Counted from the stretch's first letter, positions 20,285 to 60,134 are shown. The stretch: DNA of 64,000 bases from Bacillota bacterium (GCA_021846565.1 JAJZWS010000005.1:10321-74320); one strand, 5' to 3'. Numbers and translations are program-made. The notes: a model not told the origin generated them from the sequence alone.

Positions 20285-20576
20285 ATCCCCGGTCGTCATC
20301 CCGCGCGACAACGGCGCGTCTCCGCTGGGAGCGACGTGCGGCCGGGCATGTAGCGGCTTGCGCTCCCGCGGCTGCCCCAGGGCCGCGCCGCCGCCGGCCG
20401 TCCGTTGACCACTCCTCGCGAGGGCGCGTGGCGCACCCGCGGTCCGGGGCCGATGAATGGCTGGGGTCGCTTGGGTGGTACACTCGCGGGGGATGGGGCC
20501 AGGGCGAGCCCGGTGCCCCTAGGCGCGGTGGACCACACAGGGACGCCGCCGCCTCCCGGCCGGAGGTGAATGGTAG

Positions 20577-21137
20577 ATGGCCATGAGTGGCGAGAAGGCA
20601 GCGGCCCCGGTGGGCCACGGCTCGGGCAGACCGACACGTCCGCTGTGGCGGGAAATTGTGCAGACGGTCGTGTTGGCCGCCGTGCTGGCCTTTTTGATTC
20701 GGACGTTTGTGCTAGAGTCCTTTCAGGTTCAGGGCCATTCGATGTTTCCGACGCTCACGACCGGCGACCGGGTGTTGGTGGACAAGTTGCTGTATCGCAT
20801 CGAGGGGCCGCGCACCGGGGAGATTGTCGTGTTCCAGTCACCGGTGAAGGAGAACCAGGACTGGATCAAGAGGGTCATCGGGGTGCCCGGCGACACGGTG
20901 AAGATTGTGGCGGGGCAGGTGTACATCAATGGCCACCGGTACGCCGAGCCGTTCGTCAAGCTCAACTACCGGTACAACTACGGGCCAGTCACGGTAACGC
21001 CGGGGCATTTGTTCGTGCTGGGCGACAACCGCACGAACAGCTACGACAGCCGCTACTTCGGGCTCTTGGCCGAATGGCGGGTGAAGGGTGATGCGTTCGT
21101 GGTGTGGTGGCCGCCCAAGGTCATTGGCGGCATCTAA
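20577..21137 (+). CDS. lepB: signal peptidase I
   Basis: GHSMFPTL catalytic Ser, IKRVIGVPGD catalytic Lys, GDNRTNSYDSR. Confidence 0.95.
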   Translation: MAMSGEKAAAPVGHGSGRPTRPLWREIVQTVVLAAVLAFLIRTFVLESFQVQGHSMFPTLTTGDRVLVDKLLYRIEGPRTGEIVVFQSPVKENQDWIKRVIGVPGDTVKIVAGQVYINGHRYAEPFVKLNYRYNYGPVTVTPGHLFVLGDNRTNSYDSRYFGLLAEWRVKGDAFVVWWPPKVIGGI

Positions 21138-21157
21138 CCGGAAACGGGCCCGGGCAT

Positions 21158-21186
21158 TTGACACGCAGGGTCGCGCAGGGTAGCAT
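21158..21186 (+). promoter_or_regulatory. sigmaA promoter of Ehr operon 1
   Basis: TTGACA-N17-TAGCAT directly upstream of the riboswitch. Confidence 0.75.
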
Positions 21187-21202
21187 GCCAACGCAACCAA
21201 TA

Positions 21203-21264
21203 CGGCGATGGAGACCGCCGGGGCTACGCCCGAACTGCCAGAGCATCTGGCTAATGACTCCTAC
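21203..21264 (+). ncRNA. fluoride (crcB) riboswitch aptamer 1
   Basis: CGGCG-ATGGAGAC-CGCCG (P1), GCCAGA-GCA-TCTGGC (P2), TAATGACTCCTAC; GGAG/CTCC pseudoknot; matches the consensus GGCGAUGGnGUUCGCC...GCUAAUGACnCCUAC. Confidence 0.9.
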
Positions 21265-21303
21265 CGTGCACGTGACGTTGACGTGGCGGTAGGGGTATTT
21301 TTT
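21258..21303 (+). terminator. riboswitch expression-platform terminator 1
   Basis: CTCCTACCG...CGGTAGGGG followed by TATTTTTT; the 5' arm overlaps the aptamer pseudoknot strand (ON-switch layout). Confidence 0.82.
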
Positions 21304-21329
21304 GTGCCGAAGCGGGAGAGGAGTTGCAC

Positions 21330-22262
21330 ATGCCAATCGTGGCACAGGGGCTGCAAGTGTTGTTTGTTCTGGCATTCGCGCCACTTTTAAAGGGCATCAT
21401 GGATCGGGTGAAGGCTCGCGGCATGCGGCGACAAGGCCCTCCGTGGGTTCAGCCCTATCGGAATCTGTGGAAGTGGGCTCACAAGTCCATCGTGCGCACC
21501 CCATACACCACGGGCCTCGCGGACTGGGTTCCCGTGTTATATTTCACGGCGCCCCTGATAGTGACTCTGTTAATCCCGGTGTTGACCACCATGCCGCTGC
21601 CGCTCGCGTTTATGGCGGACATTTTGGGCGGCGGACTCATTTTGGCCGGAGCCGGCTTTCTGCTGTTGTTCTACGCCCTGGACTCGGGCAGCGCCTACGC
21701 GGCCATTGGGGTGAGCCGCATCCGGCTCATCGGCACCCTGGGGGAACCACTGACGGTGATGGCCGTGTTCACGGCCGCCGCCGTGGGACACTCGACGATT
21801 CCCTACACGGTCAATCAGGCGTTCTTCGCCCAAAGTTTCTTCGCCCCGGTGCACCTGTTGGTGCTCCTGGCCTGGTTGCTGCTGCTGCTGGCCGAGGCCG
21901 GCCGCCTACCGGTGGACAACCCCGATTCGTCCCAGGAGCTGTCGCTCATCGACCCCAACCGGGTGTTTGAAGCCAGCGGCCCGGATCTGGCGCTGCTGGA
22001 GTGGGGCGGGTGGATGAAGTACACCGTGCTGTCCATCATTCTGGTGAACGTGTTGGGCTGGCCCGTGGGATTGGCGGCGATGCTGACGCCCGGCGCGCTG
22101 GCGCTGGCGATTCTGACGACGGCCGCCAAGCTGGTGGTGGTGGGGCTCGTGGTGGTGGGCATTGAGCTGTCTTTCGCCAAGCTCCGGCTGATGCGCATTG
22201 CGGAGTACCTGACGCTCTCGGTGGCCTTGGCCGCGCTGGCGGCCTTGGCCGCCGGGCTCTAG
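21330..22262 (+). CDS. Ehr complex 1 membrane subunit, HyfC/HycD (NuoH-like)
   Basis: RRQGPPWVQPYRNLWK, AEAGRLPVDNP, E.SG..LALLEW. Confidence 0.88.
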   Translation: MPIVAQGLQVLFVLAFAPLLKGIMDRVKARGMRRQGPPWVQPYRNLWKWAHKSIVRTPYTTGLADWVPVLYFTAPLIVTLLIPVLTTMPLPLAFMADILGGGLILAGAGFLLLFYALDSGSAYAAIGVSRIRLIGTLGEPLTVMAVFTAAAVGHSTIPYTVNQAFFAQSFFAPVHLLVLLAWLLLLLAEAGRLPVDNPDSSQELSLIDPNRVFEASGPDLALLEWGGWMKYTVLSIILVNVLGWPVGLAAMLTPGALALAILTTAAKLVVVGLVVVGIELSFAKLRLMRIAEYLTLSVALAALAALAAGL

Positions 22263-22314
22263 CGGCGGATTGGCGCCGATCCGGTTGCAGACTTTGTGTT
22301 GAAGGAGGAGCGCC

Positions 22315-22935
22315 ATGCCGGTGTGGTTGGTGCATCCCACGCTGATGGCCGAAGCGGGGGCGGCGGTGGTGTGGCTCGCGGCGAATCTCATTGCGCTGGC
22401 CCGCCGGCCCGCCACGGCCATCAGTTGGTATGCGATCGCGGGACTGGTCGAGGGGGGGCTGGCCGTGTTATGGGGGCTGGCCCACCACCAGGCCGCCTGG
22501 TGGAGCATGGGGATTTTGTGGATGGCCGCCAAGGGCGTCGTGGTGCCGCGGTGGCTGTTGGCGGCGCTGCCGCCGGACCGGTGGGAACTGGTCGCGTCCG
22601 GCACCCCGCGCCTGCTGCTGGGCAGCGCGGTGCTGGTGGTGGTGACCGTGGCCGCCGGAGGATCGGCGGGGGTGGCGGTGGCGGCGCTGTTGACCCCGTT
22701 TTGGCTTTTGACCCAGCGGCGCGAGCTGTGGGTGGCCGCCATCCTGCTGATGGAGGCGGAAGTGGCGCTCGGCTTTGTCGCGCTGGGCGCGCACGTCGCA
22801 CCGGCGACGGTCGATGTCCTGGACGTGGCCGAGGTCCTGTGGGCCGGGGCCCTGCTGGCGTGGCTGCTGCGGCGGGGCCGGCTGGATTGGGATGAGCCGA
22901 TTCACACGACGGCGCTTCGGCGTCTGAGGGGGTAG
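22315..22935 (+). CDS. Ehr complex 1 small membrane subunit, HyfE-like
   Basis: Hydrophobic; KGVVVPRWL and C-terminal TTALRRLRG typical of HyfE; same position as the HyfE of operon 2. Confidence 0.7.
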   Translation: MPVWLVHPTLMAEAGAAVVWLAANLIALARRPATAISWYAIAGLVEGGLAVLWGLAHHQAAWWSMGILWMAAKGVVVPRWLLAALPPDRWELVASGTPRLLLGSAVLVVVTVAAGGSAGVAVAALLTPFWLLTQRRELWVAAILLMEAEVALGFVALGAHVAPATVDVLDVAEVLWAGALLAWLLRRGRLDWDEPIHTTALRRLRG

Positions 22936-22940
22936 GCGAC

Positions 22941-24269
22941 GTGGCGGTATGGGTTCCCATCGCATGGGTGATCGGGATGGGAGCATTGGCGTCCGGGCGG
23001 GGCCGCTGGCCACTGGTGGCGGCCGCCGGCACGGCCTTGGCGGCGGCACTGGACGTGTCGCGCGCGCTGGCGCACCCGGCCTGGACGGCCGAATATGGGG
23101 CGTTGGTCCTGGTGCTGGCCACCTTTGCGCTCATCATGTCGCCCGCCTATTTCCTGGGGGCAGCGGTTCACCACCCGTGGCCCGCGGCCCGCGAGCGCTG
23201 GTACTACGCTTGGCTCGGGGTGTTTGCGGCGGCGCTCCTGGCGCTGGCGGCGCCGTGGCCGCTGGTGGATCTGTGGGTGGCCGTGGAAGCCACGACGCTG
23301 TCATCGGTGCTGCTGGTGGCCCTGCCCCCCGGCGCCGGGCCGTTTGAGGCTTCGTGGAAGTACGTGACGCTGGCCATGCTGGGCGGACTGCTGGCGTTGG
23401 GCGGCATCCTGCTGATGCAAAGTGGCGCGGCGGCCGACGTGGCCGTGGGGGCGCTGTTGATGCTGGTGGGCTTTGGGATCAAGGCGGGCTTGGTGCCGTT
23501 CCACACCTGGCTGCCGGACGCGCATGCCGAGGCGCCCGCCCCGGTGTCGGGCCTGCTGTCAGGGGCCGAGCTGGGGGGGATTCTTATCGTGGCGTGGCGC
23601 GGACTCACGCTGGCTCAGGGGCTCCTGCACCAGCACTGGCCACTTCTGGCGCTTTTGGCGCTGGGGCTCCTGTCCCTGCTGGTGGGGGTGGCTTTGATAT
23701 CTCGCCAGCACAATCTGAAGCGTCTGTTGGCGTACTCGTCCGTCGAGCACATGGGGGTCATTGCGGTGGGGCTGGCTTTTGGGGGGCCGGCTCTCTTAGG
23801 GGCGTTTCTGCACGTGTTTACCCACGGGTTGGCCAAAAGCCAGGCGTTTTATCTCTCCGGGTCGGTGCAGGCGCACTACGGGACCGTGGACACGCGGCAC
23901 ATTCACGGCCTGGGCCGCCGACTCCCGTGGACGGCCGGGGGTCTCATGGTGGCCATCGGAGCTCTGGCCGGCCTGCCGCCGCTGGGGCCGTTTTGGAGTG
24001 AGTGGCTGGTCATTCAGGGAGGGTTGGCGGACAAGGGGATGGCGGTGTGGGCGGCTCTGACGGCGCTGCTGCTGGCTGGCGGCTTCGTGGCGCTCATGTA
24101 CCGGCTGCCGCGGCTCTGGCAGGGCTCTCGGCCTCCGGTGCCCCCCGAGGGGGCGGGGCCGCCGGAGTCCAAATTCCTTTCCCTGCCTGTACTGTTGATG
24201 TCCAGCCTCACGATGTCGGCCGGGGTGGTCGTGCCCTGGGTGTTCCTGGGGTTGGGACGGGGGGTGTAG
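22941..24269 (+). CDS. Ehr complex 1 antiporter-like subunit, HyfF-like
   Basis: WVAVEATTL, EASWKY, GFGIKAGLVPFHTWLPDAHAEAPAPVS, KRLLAYSSVEHMG. Confidence 0.88.
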   Translation: MAVWVPIAWVIGMGALASGRGRWPLVAAAGTALAAALDVSRALAHPAWTAEYGALVLVLATFALIMSPAYFLGAAVHHPWPAARERWYYAWLGVFAAALLALAAPWPLVDLWVAVEATTLSSVLLVALPPGAGPFEASWKYVTLAMLGGLLALGGILLMQSGAAADVAVGALLMLVGFGIKAGLVPFHTWLPDAHAEAPAPVSGLLSGAELGGILIVAWRGLTLAQGLLHQHWPLLALLALGLLSLLVGVALISRQHNLKRLLAYSSVEHMGVIAVGLAFGGPALLGAFLHVFTHGLAKSQAFYLSGSVQAHYGTVDTRHIHGLGRRLPWTAGGLMVAIGALAGLPPLGPFWSEWLVIQGGLADKGMAVWAALTALLLAGGFVALMYRLPRLWQGSRPPVPPEGAGPPESKFLSLPVLLMSSLTMSAGVVVPWVFLGLGRGV

Positions 24270-24270
24270 C

Positions 24271-25653
24271 ATGGCCGACCGCATGATCGTGGGAATTCCG
24301 GAGTCGCACGCAACCGATCCGCTGTCCGATGCGCTGGGACAGATGGCGCGCGACGGCGCCGCCCTGCTGCACGCGTTCCTGAGCGCGCGCGGGCTCACGT
24401 TGGTCATCGCACCGGCAGCCCGGGGCGCGCCGGAGGAGATGGTCCTGGGGCCCGGTCCGTTCTCGCGGCCCACTCGCGCGGGCCATCAGCTGTTTTGGGG
24501 GATCGAGCACACGCTGCCCCCGATCGTGTGGCATCATGCCAGCCGGCGGCGCCCCGTACGGGGGCGGGGACTGCACCTCATGCCGCTCGGCCCGGTGCGC
24601 GGTGACGTGTCCGAGTCGCTCGCGTACCAGCTGGTGGTGCTGGGCGACGAGATTCACCAGGTGCGGCTGCGTGCCGGGTACAAGCGGCGGCACGTGGCCG
24701 AGGCCATGACGGGGGCGGATGTGTCGGCCGCCCTCCAGGTGGCCGAGCGGGTGACGGGGACCTCGCGGGTCGCGCACGCCCTGGCGTTTTCCCTGGCGGT
24801 GGAACAGGCGCTGGGCATCGGGGTGTCTGCCGCCGACCAAGAGGCCCGGGTGGTGCTGGCCGAGTTGGAGCGCATCACGAGCCACGTAGGGGATCTGGCG
24901 CTGTTGGCGGCGTCGACGGGCACCGTGGCGGCCGCTGCCGACTGGTTTCGCCTCAAAGAGACCCTGCTCAGGTTTCAGGCGGCGCTCACCGGGCACCGGT
25001 ATCTCATGGGGGTGGTGGGGCCGGGTGGGCACCGCCGGCCGCTGTCCCGCGAGCTGTCGGCGCTGCCCGCGCTGCTGGCCGCGGTCCGGGCGCAGGTGGA
25101 CGCCGTCGCCAGTGCGCTGGACGTCACCAACAGCTATCTGGATCGGCTGCACGGTGCGGGCCGCCTGCCCGAATCCCCGGACGGCGGGGTGTACTGGACG
25201 GGGTTTGTGGGCAAAAGTGCCGGACTCATGCGGGACACGCGCTGGGATGCCCCGTATGCCGCGTATGGGGCCCTCACGGCCGGTCTGGCGCCCGTGTCCG
25301 TCAATCGGCCCGATGCTTACGGCCGCGCCTGGGTGCGTCTGGGCGAGGTGCGCCAGAGCTTGCAGATGCTGTCGCGGGTGATGGATTTTAGGTCTCCGGT
25401 CGAGACCGCGGCGCCCCCCGAGAGGCAGGGTGGCGACCGGGGGGTGGGCTACGGGATGGTGGAGGCGCCCCGCGGCCGCCTGTGCTACCGCCTAGCGGTG
25501 CACGCGGGGCGCGTTCGCGCGGCGTCGCTCACCACGCCGTCCCAACTCAACTGGCCCGCGGTGCCGCTGGCGTTGGAGCAGCGAAACATCCTGCAGGATT
25601 TTCCCATCATTGACGCGAGCTTCTCCCTGGCTGTGTCCGCGTTGGACTTGTAG
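24271..25653 (+). CDS. Ehr complex 1 large subunit (HycE/HyfG/NuoD-like, no Ni-binding cysteines)
   Basis: GPVRGDVSES, ERVTGTSRVAHALAF, AELERITSH, VEAPRG, QDFPIIDASFSLAVSALDL; L1/L2 CxxC motifs absent. Confidence 0.88.
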   Translation: MADRMIVGIPESHATDPLSDALGQMARDGAALLHAFLSARGLTLVIAPAARGAPEEMVLGPGPFSRPTRAGHQLFWGIEHTLPPIVWHHASRRRPVRGRGLHLMPLGPVRGDVSESLAYQLVVLGDEIHQVRLRAGYKRRHVAEAMTGADVSAALQVAERVTGTSRVAHALAFSLAVEQALGIGVSAADQEARVVLAELERITSHVGDLALLAASTGTVAAAADWFRLKETLLRFQAALTGHRYLMGVVGPGGHRRPLSRELSALPALLAAVRAQVDAVASALDVTNSYLDRLHGAGRLPESPDGGVYWTGFVGKSAGLMRDTRWDAPYAAYGALTAGLAPVSVNRPDAYGRAWVRLGEVRQSLQMLSRVMDFRSPVETAAPPERQGGDRGVGYGMVEAPRGRLCYRLAVHAGRVRAASLTTPSQLNWPAVPLALEQRNILQDFPIIDASFSLAVSALDL

Positions 25654-25708
25654 CGCCCACACAGACGCAACGCCCGGGAGAAGTTGCCACACGAGAAGGG
25701 AGCGCCGC

Positions 25709-26245
25709 ATGTTTTATCGACGATGGCTTATGCACTATCTGAAGCGGCCGGTGGTGACCAGCTTTCCGGGTCAAGTCGACCCGGCCGCTCCCGCGCGCGC
25801 CCCGCTGGAGCCAGCCGCCCATCCGCTGTTTCGCCAATCGCTCACCCTGCGTCAGGTGGATGGGGGGTCGTGCAACGGCTGCGAGGCGGAGATCCAGCTG
25901 CTGGCGAGCCCGGTCTACGATCTGTCGCGCTTTGGCTTCGCGCTCTCTCCGTCGCCCCGCCATGCGGACCTGCTGCTCGTGACCGGCGTCATCACCGAGG
26001 CGATGGTGCCCGTCATCCGCACCGCCTACGACGCCATGCCTGAACCCCGCCTGGTGGTGGCGGTGGGCGCGTGTGCCACCGAGGACGGCGGCGGGTTTCA
26101 CGGCATGCCGGGGGTGGTGGGGCGGCTGGACGGGGTGGTCCCCGTGGCCGTGCGCATTCCCGGATGCCCACCCAGCCCCAACGACCTCCTGGCGGGACTG
26201 CTGGCAGCGGTCGGGCGCCCCGCACGCACCGCGGAGGCCCGCTGA
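25709..26245 (+). CDS. Ehr complex 1 small Fe-S subunit (HycG/HyfI/NuoB-like)
   Basis: DGGSCNGCEAEI, SPRHADLLLVTG, VGACA, IPGCPP. Confidence 0.9.
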   Translation: MFYRRWLMHYLKRPVVTSFPGQVDPAAPARAPLEPAAHPLFRQSLTLRQVDGGSCNGCEAEIQLLASPVYDLSRFGFALSPSPRHADLLLVTGVITEAMVPVIRTAYDAMPEPRLVVAVGACATEDGGGFHGMPGVVGRLDGVVPVAVRIPGCPPSPNDLLAGLLAAVGRPARTAEAR

Positions 26246-28230
26246 TGCTCGCGGCCGCGCTCTTGGTGCTGCTGACCGCGATTGCCGCCGGGCTCGGCCT
26301 GCTGCACGCGGGTCGGCCTCGGTCGCGCGCCGGGGCGCGCCTGGCGGTTGGCACCTGGTTCGCGCTGGCCATGGCGGGCGCGGTAGGGCTAATTTGGCGC
26401 AGTGGCACGCTGCGTCTGGTCACGCCGGTGGGGTCGGTGGGATGGCACGTGGATCCGTGGGTGGCTGGCTGGCTCATGGTCGTGGGGCTGATGGGCGGTT
26501 TCGCCGTGAGTGCGCGGGCCGCGGCCGGGGCGGTGCCGGGAGAAATGATCGCGGTCAGCTGGCTGGCGGTGGGCGTGGCCGGCATCTTAACTGCTGCCGA
26601 TGCCCTGACCCTGGTGCTGGCATGGGGTCTTTTGACCGCGTCCGCCTATGGGGCGGTGGTGGCCGGGGCGCACCGGGCACGGGTGCTGGCCGCGGGCTGG
26701 GTGCTCCTGGTGATGAATGAGCTGGGCACCGCCGCGCTCATCGTCGGCGCCATCCTGCTGACAACCCAAGTTGCGGTCGGCCCGGTGGCGGACGTCGCCG
26801 CGCTGTTGGGTCTGTTGGGCCTAGGTGCGAAGACGGGGCTGTTCCCCTTTCAGGTATGGCTGCCGGTGGCGGAACCCGAGGCGCCTGGGGTGGTGGCCGG
26901 TGTGTTGTCCGGGGTGACCACGGCGGTGGTGATGGTGGCACTGGGTCAGTGGTACGGCTGGACGCATCCGGACCTGACCGTGGGCTGGATCACGGTGGGG
27001 CTCGGGGTGGTGGGCGGCGCCCTGGGGGCGGTTCACGCGGCCCTGGACCATGACTTGAAGCGGGTGTTGGCGTACTCCACCGTCGAGTGGATGGGACTCG
27101 CCACCGCGCTGCTGGGCCTCTCCGTCGTCTTTCTCCGCACCGGTGCCCCCGCCCCCGCGGGTGTGGCGCTGGCCGCGTTTTATGCCGTGGCCCTCATGCA
27201 TCTAGGCGCCAAGACGGCGGCCTTTGGCATTGCCGGGTGGGTAGAGCAGGCGGGCGCGGGGCGGCGGCTGGATGCCTTGGGAGGGCTGTATCGCCGAGCC
27301 GGGTGGCTCGCGCGGTGGGCGCTTTTGGCCGTGATTGCCCTGATGGCGCTGCCGCCCACCGGAGGGTATTTGGCGGAGTGGCTATCCCTGGAATCCGTCT
27401 TCATGGAAAGCGCCGGGCCGCTTAAGCCGCCGCTTCTGGTCGTGGGCATCCTGCTGGCGCTTTTGGCCGCCACGGGCGCCACCGCCATGCTGCGCTGGTA
27501 TGGCGCCGTATTTCTGGGGCCTCCGCGCGGCCGCAAGCTGCCGCGCCGTCCCGACGCGGGGTCCGTCCGCCTGGTGGGGGCCGGTGCGGTGCTGGCCGCC
27601 GTGGCGGGTGTGGGGGTCGGGTGGTGGCTGCCATTTGCGGCGCGCTGGGCGCCCCCGCTCGTGGGTCAGCCCGTGCTGCGGCACCTGGTGGCCCGGACGT
27701 TTGGTGCGCATCCGGCCCCGGCGCTGCTGGTATCCCTGGGCGGGCGCGTGTTTGCCGGGCTGCCTGGCGCGCCGGGCGCCATCGTGTTTCCGGGTCCGGG
27801 ATTCACGGCCATCGCCCCTTGGTATCTGCTGTGGTTCGGCGGTGCGATGGTGCTCGGCGTGGCGTGGGCGCGCCGCGCGTGGATGCGGCGGCACCAACTG
27901 ACCGTACGCCGGGAGGCGCCTTGGTCCGGCGGGTCCCACTATCGGCGGGAACACGCGTGGACCGCCACCGCGCTGACGCACCCCTTGCGGCTGGCCTTTG
28001 CCCCCGTGATTCGTCTCACGCGCCGCCGGCAGGAGGGGGCGGTGGTGCGTGTGGACACGGACATCGCCGATCGCCTGCTGGAGCAGGGGATGCGGCCCGT
28101 GCAGCGATGGGTCGGGCGCATAGCCGATGCGCTCGCCCAAACCGAGTCGGGGCTGGTGAGCCACTATGTCTTGTATGTGCTGGCGGCTCTTGCGGTGGGG
28201 CTTTTGGCGCTCGGCCTCCACGCCGGCTGA
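26245..28230 (+). CDS. Ehr complex 1 antiporter-like subunit, HyfB-like
   Basis: KTGLFPFQVWLP, LKRVLAYSTVEWMG, LPPTGGYLAEW; ATG overlaps the upstream TGA. Confidence 0.85.
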   Translation: MLAAALLVLLTAIAAGLGLLHAGRPRSRAGARLAVGTWFALAMAGAVGLIWRSGTLRLVTPVGSVGWHVDPWVAGWLMVVGLMGGFAVSARAAAGAVPGEMIAVSWLAVGVAGILTAADALTLVLAWGLLTASAYGAVVAGAHRARVLAAGWVLLVMNELGTAALIVGAILLTTQVAVGPVADVAALLGLLGLGAKTGLFPFQVWLPVAEPEAPGVVAGVLSGVTTAVVMVALGQWYGWTHPDLTVGWITVGLGVVGGALGAVHAALDHDLKRVLAYSTVEWMGLATALLGLSVVFLRTGAPAPAGVALAAFYAVALMHLGAKTAAFGIAGWVEQAGAGRRLDALGGLYRRAGWLARWALLAVIALMALPPTGGYLAEWLSLESVFMESAGPLKPPLLVVGILLALLAATGATAMLRWYGAVFLGPPRGRKLPRRPDAGSVRLVGAGAVLAAVAGVGVGWWLPFAARWAPPLVGQPVLRHLVARTFGAHPAPALLVSLGGRVFAGLPGAPGAIVFPGPGFTAIAPWYLLWFGGAMVLGVAWARRAWMRRHQLTVRREAPWSGGSHYRREHAWTATALTHPLRLAFAPVIRLTRRRQEGAVVRVDTDIADRLLEQGMRPVQRWVGRIADALAQTESGLVSHYVLYVLAALAVGLLALGLHAG

Positions 28231-28285
28231 CCTCAAGGGGTCCTGCACGGAGCGATGACCAAGACGTGAAGAGGACCGAAGCGCG

Positions 28286-28316
28286 GACGGGCGGCCACAG
28301 CGCCCGTCTTTTGCTT
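28286..28316 (+). terminator. intrinsic terminator ending Ehr operon 1
   Basis: GACGGGCG-GCCACAG-CGCCCGTC-TTTTGCTT. Confidence 0.65.
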
Positions 28317-28417
28317 GGGTGGCGTCGCCGACGAAATACGGTGCAGAAGCGGGCTGACGGGAGATACCGCGAGGCGAAAGGACGACGGGACGGGAATCCC
28401 TCTGGTGCACGGCCCGT

Positions 28418-28446
28418 TTGACAGGCAGGGTGTGAAACCGTACACT
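28418..28446 (+). promoter_or_regulatory. sigmaA promoter of the DHA2 transporter, followed by an AT-rich possible operator
   Basis: TTGACA-N17-TACACT; downstream AT-rich TTTATATAGCGAAATAAA. Confidence 0.65.
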
Positions 28447-28509
28447 CTTGGTAGAAAGTTTATATAGCGAAATAAATCTGGCCGTTTCCACAAGCGAGGG
28501 AGGCGTCGC

Positions 28510-30807
28510 GTGTCACAGCGATCCATGAGCCCGGCCCAGTCATCCAACCGCATTGCTGACTCCAGGCGGTGGTGGGCGCTGGCCGCGGTGTTAATTACGA
28601 TGTTTTTCTCGTCCATGGACCAGACGGCCGTGTCGACCGCCATGCCGTCCATCATCGGGCAGTTGCAGGGCCTGTCGCTGTACTCGTGGGTGTTCACGGC
28701 TTACATGATGGCGTCGGCCGTCACCGTGCCCATCTACGGCAAGCTGTCCGACTCCTACGGCCGAAAGCCCTTTTACGTGTTTGGGCTCGTGGTGTTCATG
28801 GTGGGGTCGGCCATCTCGGGTCAAGCCTACAGCATGATGGACCTCATTATGGCCCGCGCGCTGCAGGGCATCGGGGCTGGTGCCATGCTTACTATGCCGC
28901 GCGCCACCATCGGCGACATTTTCAACCCGCGGGAGCGCGGCCGCTGGATGGGCGTCATCGGGGCCGTGTTTGGGCTGGCGTCCATCGTCGGACCGACACT
29001 CGGGGGCTGGATCACCGACAGTTTTGGATGGCGTTGGGTGTTTTACGTCAACCTGCCCATCGCGGCAGTGGCGCTGGTGCTGGTGCTGGTAAGTCTGCCC
29101 ACGGTGCGCGCAGCGCGGGCCGCGAGGGCCGACTGGCCGGGCATCGCGCTCCTGATTGTCGGGCTGCTGCCGATCCTCCTCGGGTTGACGTGGGCAGGAT
29201 CTGAATACGCGTGGGGATCCTGGGTGGTGCTGTCGCTCTTTGGCCTGGGGGCGGTGGCGCTTGGGGCGTTTGTGCTGGTGGAGCTCCGGAGTCAGGATGC
29301 CGTGCTGGCGCCGGCGCTGTTCAAAAGCCGGACGTTTACCAGCTCGGTCGTGGTGCAGCTCCTGGTGTCGATGGCGATGTTCGGCGCCCTCATGTACCTC
29401 CCCCTGTATGCGCAGGGGGTCATTGGGCTGTCGGCGGCGGCCAGCGGCGCCATTATGACGCCCATGATGCTGGCCTTCATCGGGGCCAGCGTGGTGGCGG
29501 GACAAATCATGACCAAGACCGGCCGCTACCGGTTGATGGCGCATGTCAGTGCCCTGGTGATGGCCGTAGGCATGTTTCTCTTGATGAGCATGACCGCGTC
29601 AACCAGCTACACGACCGCCATGCTGAACGTCGTGGTGATGGGGCTGGGCGTGGGTGGGGTGATGCCCATCCTGAATGTGGCCGTCCAAAACGCCTTTCCC
29701 TATGAGGTGATGGGCACGGTCAACGCGACGCAGCAGTTTGCGAGCTCGCTCGGCGGCGTGATTGCCGCACCGATTCTGGGCACCCTCATGACGCGCACAT
29801 TTGCCGCCCGGCTGCCTGGGCTCATGCCGGTCCGCCTGACGGCGTTGCTGGCGCACCTGCCGGCGTCGGTGCGCAATGCCGTCACCAATCCGGCCAGCCT
29901 GACCAACGCCGCCGCGCAAACGGCGCTGGGCCGAGAGTTTCGGACCCTGGGCCCGCTGGGCGGGCAGATGTATGGCAGCTTCCTGCACGCCGTGCGCGTG
30001 GCGCTGGCCGACGGCATGCACCAGCTGTTTTTAGCGGGGTTCGTGTTTGCGGTGGCGGCGCTCTTGGGCACGTTGGCTCTCCGAGAGGTTCCGCTCCGCA
30101 CCAATGAGTACTTCACCGAGCCGACGGTGGCGGCGGACGAGGGACCAGACGTCGGCCGGCGGGTGGTGGTCACCCTGTCGGCCGCGTACGGCGCCGGTGG
30201 CAGTGCCGTGGGGCGGCAACTGGCCCAGGCACTGGAGTTGCCGTTTCTGGATCGCCTCATCTCCGAGGGGGCGCTGTTTGCCGACGAGGCGAGCCGCTGG
30301 CCGATGGCGGACAATCCGGCAGGCGCGCGGTGGGCGCGCCTCGCGCACCTGCTCACACTGGCCGGGGTCAATGTCCCGCTCGCGCCCGACGGCACATGGG
30401 AAGAGCAAAAGTTCCGGGCCGATACGGAAGCGGTCATGCGGGAGGCCGCCAGCGCGCGGGGGGCCGTGGTGGTGGGACGCGCGGCGGCCCTGGTGTTTGC
30501 CCGGGACCCATCCGGCTTTCACGTGCGGCTGACGGGACCCGGGGAGGCGCGCTACGCCCGCGTGGCCAAGCGGCGGGCCGTGACCGCCGAGCAGTTTCGC
30601 GCAGTGGACCGCGCGCGCGAAGAGTATGTGCGTCACTTCTACCACGTGGATCCCACCGATCCGACGGGCTACGACCTCGTTGTCGACACCGGGAAGCTGT
30701 CGGAGGGCGAGGTGGTGGACCGCATTCGGGGCGCGCTGTCCGCCCACGCTCGCGACCCGCGCCGCACGGCACGCCCGGTGCCGCGACCCCTCACGGACCC
30801 CTGGTAG
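28510..30807 (+). CDS. DHA2 (EmrB/QacA) MFS efflux transporter fused to a C-terminal cytidylate-kinase-like domain
   Basis: MDQTAVSTAMPSI, YGKLSDSYGRK, WRWVFYVNLP; C-terminal VTLSAAYGAGGSAVGRQLAQALELPFLDR...VVVGRAA...YDLVVDT. Confidence 0.85.
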   Translation: MSQRSMSPAQSSNRIADSRRWWALAAVLITMFFSSMDQTAVSTAMPSIIGQLQGLSLYSWVFTAYMMASAVTVPIYGKLSDSYGRKPFYVFGLVVFMVGSAISGQAYSMMDLIMARALQGIGAGAMLTMPRATIGDIFNPRERGRWMGVIGAVFGLASIVGPTLGGWITDSFGWRWVFYVNLPIAAVALVLVLVSLPTVRAARAARADWPGIALLIVGLLPILLGLTWAGSEYAWGSWVVLSLFGLGAVALGAFVLVELRSQDAVLAPALFKSRTFTSSVVVQLLVSMAMFGALMYLPLYAQGVIGLSAAASGAIMTPMMLAFIGASVVAGQIMTKTGRYRLMAHVSALVMAVGMFLLMSMTASTSYTTAMLNVVVMGLGVGGVMPILNVAVQNAFPYEVMGTVNATQQFASSLGGVIAAPILGTLMTRTFAARLPGLMPVRLTALLAHLPASVRNAVTNPASLTNAAAQTALGREFRTLGPLGGQMYGSFLHAVRVALADGMHQLFLAGFVFAVAALLGTLALREVPLRTNEYFTEPTVAADEGPDVGRRVVVTLSAAYGAGGSAVGRQLAQALELPFLDRLISEGALFADEASRWPMADNPAGARWARLAHLLTLAGVNVPLAPDGTWEEQKFRADTEAVMREAASARGAVVVGRAAALVFARDPSGFHVRLTGPGEARYARVAKRRAVTAEQFRAVDRAREEYVRHFYHVDPTDPTGYDLVVDTGKLSEGEVVDRIRGALSAHARDPRRTARPVPRPLTDPW

Positions 30808-59983: not shown

Positions 59984-60028
59984 CAAAACAAAATGACCCC
60001 AGCAGCTTTAGTACTGCCAGGAGTCATT
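59984..60028 (-). terminator. riboswitch expression-platform terminator 2
   Basis: AATGACTCCTGGCAG-TACTAAAG-CTGCTGGGGTCATT-TTGTTTTG on the - strand, overlapping the aptamer 3' end. Confidence 0.8.
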
Positions 60029-60080
60029 AACCGCTGTGCGGTAATTTTGGACGATTGTCCGCGGCGGATTCCATCGCCGC
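60018..60080 (-). ncRNA. fluoride (crcB) riboswitch aptamer 2
   Basis: Minus strand GCGGCG-ATGGAATC-CGCCGC (P1), ACCGC-ACA-GCGGT (P2), TAATGACTCCTG; one mismatch in the pseudoknot. Confidence 0.85.
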
Positions 60081-60106
60081 TCAGCCTCCATATCGCGTCT
60101 CCGAAA

Positions 60107-60134
60107 AGTTTAGCACGACAGAACTCCGTGTCAA
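60107..60134 (-). promoter_or_regulatory. sigmaA promoter of Ehr operon 2
   Basis: TTGACA-N16-TAAACT with extended TG motif, on the - strand upstream of the aptamer. Confidence 0.65.

Follow-up and report, generated by a model that had tools for sequence, protein, structure and literature searches.

The locus lies in a 64-kb stretch of DNA that was analysed as a whole (hereafter, the window). A six-gene operon on the plus strand (operon 1) is preceded by a promoter, an RNA element of the fluoride riboswitch family and a terminator, and a paralogous six-gene operon with a leader of the same three-part layout is found on the minus strand (Table 1). A preliminary description of this DNA had given operon 1 a length of 6.9 kb, and the stretch from its first start codon to its last stop codon (21330-28230) measures 6,901 nt.

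Table 1. Features of the two leaders and of the two operons in the window
Feature	Position	Strand	Basis or remark
Promoter 1, sigma-70 type	21158-21186	+	Promoter scan; -35 TTGACA 21158-21163, 17-nt spacer, -10 TAGCAT 21181-21186; 10/12 consensus positions matched
Fluoride riboswitch aptamer 1, RF01734	21195-21270	+	Rfam cmscan
Aptamer 1, P1	21204-21207 with 21216-21219	+
Aptamer 1, pseudoknot	21210-21213 (GGAG) with 21258-21261 (CUCC)	+
Aptamer 1, insert hairpin	21221-21231	+
Aptamer 1, P3	21237-21240 with 21248-21251	+
Intrinsic terminator 1	21257-21303	+	Hairpin 21257-21296, then A, then T6 21298-21303
Ribosome-binding site GGGAGAGGAG	21314-21323	+	Direct reading
Start codon ATG of operon 1	21330-21332	+	21330 is its A
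NuoH/HycD-like membrane subunit, 310 aa	21330-22262	+	Pfam NADHdh, E 1.5e-21
Small protein, 206 aa	22315-22935	+	Position conserved in closer loci
Antiporter-like subunit (NuoM/N, HyfF-like), 442 aa	22941-24269	+	Proton_antipo_M, E 8.7e-42
NuoD/HycE-like large subunit, 460 aa	24271-25653	+	Profile matches; alignment to 7z0s_E
NuoB/HycG-like small subunit, 178 aa	25709-26245	+	From ATG 25709
NuoL/HyfB-like antiporter subunit, 661 aa	26245-28230	+	From ATG 26245; 1-nt overlap with preceding stop codon
Terminator-like hairpin after last gene	28285-28309	+	Weak T tail
Second complete switch	59985-60134	-	cmscan, R1, fold, promoter reading
Promoter 2	60134-60107	-	TTGACA-16-TAAACT with TG
Aptamer 2, RF01734	60087-60011	-	34.4 bits (gathering score 34); 48 bits with R1
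Terminator 2	60027-59993	-	Pseudoknot-overlapping hairpin, followed by T-rich tail
Paralogous six-gene Ehr-type operon (operon 2)	59952-52296	-
Operon 2, NuoH-like	59952-59002	-
Operon 2, HyfE-like	58971-58237	-
Operon 2, HyfF-like	58240-56795	-
Operon 2, NuoCD-like large subunit	56714-55167	-	Without NiFe Cys
Operon 2, NuoB-like	55114-54401	-
Operon 2, HyfB-like	54404-52296	-

Gene content of the two operons

The open reading frames of operon 1 are separated by short gaps or overlaps. The interval from the riboswitch to the terminator-like site contains only six genes, and no electron-input subunit is encoded there: neither HycB/HycF-type ferredoxin subunits nor a formate dehydrogenase gene is found in the operon. 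NCBIfam models of hydrogenase-4 and complex-I subunits are matched, in nearly all cases far below the curated cut-offs. The product of the last gene matches the hydrogenase 4 subunit B model with an E value of 6e-70, below its cut-off, and every match of the 442-aa antiporter-like product to hydrogenase-4 subunit F models is also below the cut-off. The 206-aa protein has no Pfam or NCBIfam match; it occupies the slot of the HyfE-like subunit in the paralogous operon, and the two proteins share no clear similarity.

The preliminary description had considered the genes to be of the Ehr (energy-converting hydrogenase-related) type, and alignment of the large subunit to HycE (7z0s_E) agrees with this view. 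The four positions of the NiFe-ligand Cys residues are occupied by T162, S165, S450 and L453: the protein reads RVTGTS where HycE reads RVCGIC, so that the N-terminal Cys pair is replaced by Thr and Ser, and its C-terminus has no Cys. In the small subunit, the four Cys of the proximal [4Fe-4S] cluster are kept, and the CxxC, GxC and GCPP motifs align with 7z0s_G and 6cfw_J. Operon 1 thus encodes a homologue of group 4 NiFe hydrogenases without both Cys motifs, together with NuoH-, NuoB- and antiporter-like subunits. Because none of the four ligand positions carries a Cys, the complex cannot bind NiFe and is classified as Ehr-type. The same absence rules out a group 4 [NiFe] hydrogenase or a formate hydrogenlyase. 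Respiratory complex I was also considered and discarded, as NuoE/F/G, NuoI, NuoA and NuoJ are not in the gene set; a separate NuoD-like gene is found elsewhere in the genome (contig C108).

The large subunits of operons 1 and 2 are 37% identical. Aptamer 2 passes the Rfam threshold just barely, and the gap that precedes the start of operon 2 is 58 nt long.

Just after operon 1 lies a plus-strand gene (28510-30807) whose 765-aa product joins an MFS transporter to a cytidylate-kinase-like domain; the gene keeps this place after the operon in one related locus (L007). Its membership in the regulon was entertained and rejected: the gene has a promoter-like site of its own (28418-28446), and its similarity to a riboswitch-controlled MFS gene of a relative (G006) is merely generic. 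The latter has no close homologue in the genome of the window (G000).

The leader of operon 1 and its predicted mode of action

A promoter scan detected the TTGACA-N17-TAGCAT promoter that had been proposed upstream of operon 1. It is one of two promoter-like sites within 20500-29500, a region whose shuffled versions contain 0.8 on average. The pattern TTGACA-17-TA[G/T]CAT is kept in two close relatives (L007 and L008), despite a diverged spacer in L008.

When the whole window was searched with cmscan, two matches were obtained in total, and both belong to RF01734. Aptamer 1 reaches 45.0 bits (gathering score, 34; E value, 3e-9) and covers model positions 1-64 of 64, so that its earlier assignment to the fluoride family holds above the curated Rfam threshold. 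The score rises to 58.6 bits with R1, our own covariance model, which was built from 25 Rfam-validated aptamers. Direct reading places the beginning of GGCGATGGAG at 21204 and TAATGACTCCTAC at 21252-21264. None of the strongly conserved Rfam consensus positions (GGCGAUGG, AAC and CUxAUGAxUCCU) is missing, and both GAUGG and AUGACUCC are segments of the leader RNA (21193-21305). In the RF01734 consensus, according to Rfam, the 3' tail ACUCCU pairs with GGAG in the P1 loop.

The minimum free energy fold of 21193-21335 (-62.2 kcal/mol; z, -3.35) was equalled by none of 200 shuffled sequences, and contains P1, the insert hairpin, P3 and the hairpin of terminator 1. On its own, this hairpin has 16 bp with one bulge and a 7-nt loop, and a predicted energy of -24.5 kcal/mol. 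A simple terminator scanner did not list it; its structure is, however, that of an intrinsic terminator, a GC-rich hairpin directly before a U-tract. The 5' arm (21257-21273) includes the four pseudoknot nucleotides CUCC, which bears out the proposal that one strand of the aptamer doubles as the 5' arm of a T-tailed terminator. In L008, the upper part of the stem is rebuilt from different bases and the hairpin is retained. From the end of the T-run (21303) to the start codon there are 26 nt, the distance originally estimated. Promoter, aptamer and pseudoknot-overlapping terminator are all in place, as expected for the antitermination layout attributed to this leader.

The following mode of action can be proposed. 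RNA polymerase would initiate near 21193, at the near-consensus sigma-70 promoter, and would then transcribe the 76-nt aptamer, whose membership in the RF01734 family predicts that it binds fluoride. With fluoride bound as a Mg-F complex, the pseudoknot between GGAG and CUCC would be held; the CUCC strand being occupied, the terminator hairpin could not nucleate, and transcription would read through into the six genes. Without fluoride, ACUCCUACCGU would pair with GCGGUAGGGGU, the hairpin followed by U6 would form, and transcription would end before reaching the start codon. Because terminator 1 shares the pseudoknot strand, the liganded aptamer and the terminator should be mutually exclusive, and fluoride-ON control is predicted. 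The same logic is found in passages of Weinberg et al. (2010; PMC2864571), where terminators overlapping the crcB motif are described and more ligand is expected to inhibit the terminator and raise expression.

Altogether, we assign a probability of roughly 0.88 to the reading that switch 1 is a transcriptional fluoride-ON riboswitch placed ahead of an operon for a six-gene, NiFe-less membrane complex. Judging from the layout, operon 1 would be mostly switched off when fluoride is absent, and induced when it is present.

Conservation of the switch and variation of its expression platform

For comparison, 63 loci were drawn from contigs of one genome per species by means of an alignment of 36 large-subunit homologues. 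Most are from Bacillota metagenome-assembled genomes; Sulfobacillus, Alicyclobacillus, Ammonifex, Desulfosporosinus and Sporolactobacillus are among the named ones, and the cultured Sulfobacillus harzensis DSM 109850 (L020) and Alicyclobacillus mengziensis (L042) are represented. Gene order is conserved across the loci, in which all NuoH matches were obtained with the operon 1 protein as query. No Cys occupies any of the four NiFe positions in the 63 related large subunits, and all four Fe-S Cys are kept in 56 of 62 small subunits.

Aptamers were searched for with Rfam and R1, after discarding a simple regular expression that missed the Alicyclobacillus type and gave a few matches within coding regions. 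In the window plus the 63 loci (895,947 nt), R1 detected 91 aptamer matches. Every NuoH-type operon start with upstream DNA, 57 of 57 (55 in the loci and 2 in the window), has a match on the same strand less than 520 nt upstream; because the loci were chosen by peptide patterns of this Ehr clade, such a count describes the clade and not all Ehr complexes. Scores of 37.9 bits or higher were obtained for 53 operon-start aptamers, and scores of 19-26 bits for the other four (L046, L047, L050 and the second operon of L012). Rfam itself confirmed 15 of the 19 operon starts given to it, that is, 13 of 17 in the loci and both in the window; distant operons from Alicyclobacillus, Ammonifex, Desulfosporosinus and Sporolactobacillus were among those confirmed. 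At the Rfam threshold, no aptamer was detected in four of the 17 locus operons (L045, L046, L047 and L050).

The alignment of the 91 aptamers gives further indication of a conserved structure. Pairing is found in 93.7% of cells, and both partners vary in 12 of the 14 pairs; none of 500 shuffles reached values as high, and if the partners are slid along the alignment, pairing falls to 34-50%. P1 is paired in 100% of cases, P3 in 91.6% and the pseudoknot in 90.8%, the alignment having been fitted to P1 and P3 with the pseudoknot outside the model. At pseudoknot columns 20-175, 40 sequences have UA, 30 have CG, and the operon 1 aptamer has an A-A mismatch.

These data bear on the idea that the aptamer-like sequence might have arisen by chance, or be the remnant of a decayed element, and have no regulatory role. 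We consider it extremely improbable: the E value of aptamer 1 holds across the whole window, all 57 related operon starts have the element in the same position, with covariation, and relatives also retain the promoter and the terminator.

Conservation of the aptamer is accompanied by diversity in the expression platform. A home-made rule was used to recognise terminators: a hairpin of -9 kcal/mol or lower, starting at most a few nucleotides from the CUCC strand and followed by a T-rich tail. By this rule, 48 of the 57 leaders have a terminator, at least four of them doubtful (L027, L036, L029 and L041). The remaining nine, mostly of the Sulfobacillus type, lack a T-tract and have a GGAGG Shine-Dalgarno sequence so positioned that the CUCC strand or a neighbouring helix might sequester it. 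In a set of Sulfobacillus-type leaders (L020, L027, L032, L036, L038 and L056), no T-tract terminator is found and a conserved GUCGGAGGUGG adjoins the start codon. This arrangement suggests that the leaders without T-tract may be a translational version of the switch, acting by sequestration of the Shine-Dalgarno sequence. Hence, the terminator type, to which both switches of the window belong, is not universal in the clade.

The existence of nine non-terminator platforms indicates that the strength and the mode of control vary within the clade, and raises the question of whether switch 1 might be real but leaky or backed up, with substantial basal expression that fluoride would tune rather than turn on. 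The mismatch at columns 20-175 goes in the same direction. However, the terminator 1 hairpin is strong and ends in T6, and the promoter scan detected no further consensus-like promoter on the plus strand of 21330-28230. A leaky switch is therefore, in our opinion, an unlikely alternative, albeit one to be taken seriously.

Fluoride-related context, possible role and comparison with known systems

The genome of the window (95.7% complete) has only two aptamers above the Rfam threshold, those of the two Ehr operons, and one more match at 29.7 bits (cut-off, 34; 34.1 bits with R1). The latter, on the minus strand of contig C81 (15743-15803; L003:1501-1561), lies 48 nt upstream of the likely GTG start (L003:1452, after AGGAGG) of a gene for a dynamin-family GTPase. 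We had regarded this match as lying merely inside the dynamin-like coding sequence, an interpretation that was withdrawn upon finding a better start codon and the same context in a relative: in G006, an aptamer above threshold (43.4 bits) is directly upstream of a Dynamin_N open reading frame. A bacterial dynamin-like protein under fluoride control may thus belong to this regulon. In three other genomes of the genus there are two aptamer matches each, upstream of each Ehr paralogue where the contigs permit the view. In other members of the family, further aptamers precede genes for an MFS protein, a MutS-like protein, a dynamin-like GTPase and a 306-aa protein without assignment.

Elsewhere in the clade, neighbouring aptamers precede crcB, pyrophosphatase, metallophosphoesterase and MutS-like genes as well as DUF6062. 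Genes such as crcB, pyrophosphatase and MutS-like genes make up the classic fluoride regulon in the portion of a review on the subject that we cite (PMC11139923). Three loci (L009:6713-8461, L011:10178-11956 and L014:10893-12641, plus strand) harbor, directly downstream of the Ehr operon, a gene for a soluble protein of 582-592 aa preceded by a second strong fluoride aptamer (43-50 bits, R1). The protein has a C-terminal Cys-rich motif and belongs to no Pfam family, and it was not found in the genome of the window with this query. In addition, a plasmid of Alicyclobacillus sp. ALC3 (L059) carries a fluoride-switched cluster with seven aptamer matches in 15 kb, which precede crcB, an MFS gene, a sigma-70 factor gene, genes for a metallo-beta-lactamase-fold protein and a lone NuoCD-like large subunit, and two unknowns.

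The company of these aptamers is relevant for another reading, namely that the RNA might have the fluoride fold but an altered specificity, and recognise another ligand. Variant riboswitch classes with altered ligands exist for other folds, and the genes under switch 1 are not a fluoride exporter. The strongly conserved consensus positions are, however, all present, and the same aptamer type precedes crcB, pyrophosphatase and MutS-like genes in the same neighbourhoods of relatives. We therefore view a change of ligand as very improbable, if slightly less so than a chance match.

CrcB was not found in the genome of the window. Among 31 genomes sampled, all of which have the Ehr large subunit (G000-G030), CrcB (PF02537) is found in none of the eight of the window's family (G000-G007; completeness, 84-97%) versus 19 of 23 others of the order (G008-G030), where two copies usually lie in tandem. 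The genome of the window also has two CLC genes, which were examined as candidate CLC-F exporters. They read GREGP or GAEGP and GxFAP or GVLAP, which are canonical motifs, and the candidates were rejected since both lack the CLC-F signatures GNNLI/GMGLI, GREGT/V and GEVTP, as given in the cited portion of PMC11139923.

DNA nearly identical to that of the window was detected in mine drainage metagenome runs from one study, possibly its source, and in a mine tailings metagenome from a second study. Three runs labelled RNA-Seq are probably DNA, and contain contigs of a relative roughly 93% identical.

Under acidic conditions, fluoride passes into the cell as HF, which then gives up a proton in the cytoplasm. 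The NuoH-like and the two antiporter-like subunits, if induced by fluoride, would fit a proton- or cation-translocating role, and the most likely function of the complex would be to offset, by such translocation, the cytoplasmic acidification and the loss of proton-motive force caused by HF. The retained NuoB cluster may be compatible with a redox-driven complex. That the complex moves fluoride itself seems less likely.

A broader and tentative proposal, which we would rate somewhat below even odds, is that the Ehr clade might be a dedicated fluoride-stress machine, at the centre of fluoride defence in the window's family. Three observations are in keeping with it: (i) CrcB was not found in the eight family genomes, and the CLC proteins of the window's genome lack CLC-F motifs; (ii) the four genomes of the genus that were searched (G000-G003) have aptamer matches at two paralogous Ehr operons, contigs permitting; and (iii) the only other match in the window's genome precedes a dynamin-like membrane GTPase. 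Were the proposal correct, the complex might pump protons or cations via the retained NuoB Fe-S cluster, or act as an Mrp-like antiporter, and pumping would counter HF-driven acidification in the acid mine habitat.

What is added here is modest: the strict pairing of switch and operon, the duplication of separately switched operons, and a lineage in which no recognised fluoride exporter was found. Strict pairing provides a hint at the purpose of an orphan complex, and may bear on the fluoride tolerance of bioleaching acidophiles. The riboswitch class, the logic of terminator overlap and the association with 'formate hydrogen lyase' genes are already in print, the association since 2010. Full-text literature searches, with Baker 2012 and supplements outside their scope, retrieved no paper linking fluoride to Ehr or to an energy-converting hydrogenase; likewise, no link to the Ehr complex was found in the Sulfobacillus fluoride-riboswitch literature, judged in part from titles and abstract openings.

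Switch 1 resembles the Bacillus cereus crcB leader (RF01734, transcriptional) in having P1, P3, a pseudoknot to which the 3' CUCC strand contributes, and an overlapping terminator. It differs in the insert hairpin of 10 nt that separates P1 from P3, and in the nature of the genes under control, which do not encode an exporter.

Pairing of this riboswitch with a hydrogenase-3/4-like operon has a published counterpart. Passages of Weinberg et al. (2010; PMC2864571) place the crcB motif, with overlapping terminators, upstream of 'formate hydrogen lyase' genes, and 'formate hydrogen lyase' figures among the most common riboswitch-associated enzymes in the cited portion of PMC11139923, which refers to Baker 2012. 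The large-subunit homologues analysed here also bear automatic names such as 'formate hydrogenlyase subunit 5' and 'hydrogenase-3 subunit E'. Since none of the 63 large subunits has a Cys at the NiFe positions, the complexes of this clade cannot be formate hydrogenlyases.

The best solved relatives of both subunits are E. coli formate hydrogenlyase (PDB 7Z0S) and Pyrococcus MBH (PDB 6CFW), with E values of 1e-25 and 3e-19 for the large subunit and of 9e-33 and 6e-32 for the small one. The Fe-S Cys of the latter are in register with those of HycG (7Z0S) and MbhJ (6CFW); unlike both structures, the operon 1 complex lacks NiFe ligands.

A comparable gene content is known from the Ehr complex of Sulfobacillus. 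With reference to Marreiros et al. (2013), Justice et al. (2014; PMC4378227) describe for it six syntenic genes homologous to nuoH, nuoL, hyfE and hyfB, and a large subunit without RxCGxCxxxH and DPCxxCxxH/R. Six genes and a NiFe-less large subunit are also found here, and Sulfobacillus loci are among the relatives analysed. The same genes appear as 'function unknown' in the bioenergetics literature (PMC4378227) and as 'formate hydrogen lyase' in the riboswitch literature. The word fluoride has 0 occurrences in the account of Justice et al., whereas every operon start examined here has an aptamer match.
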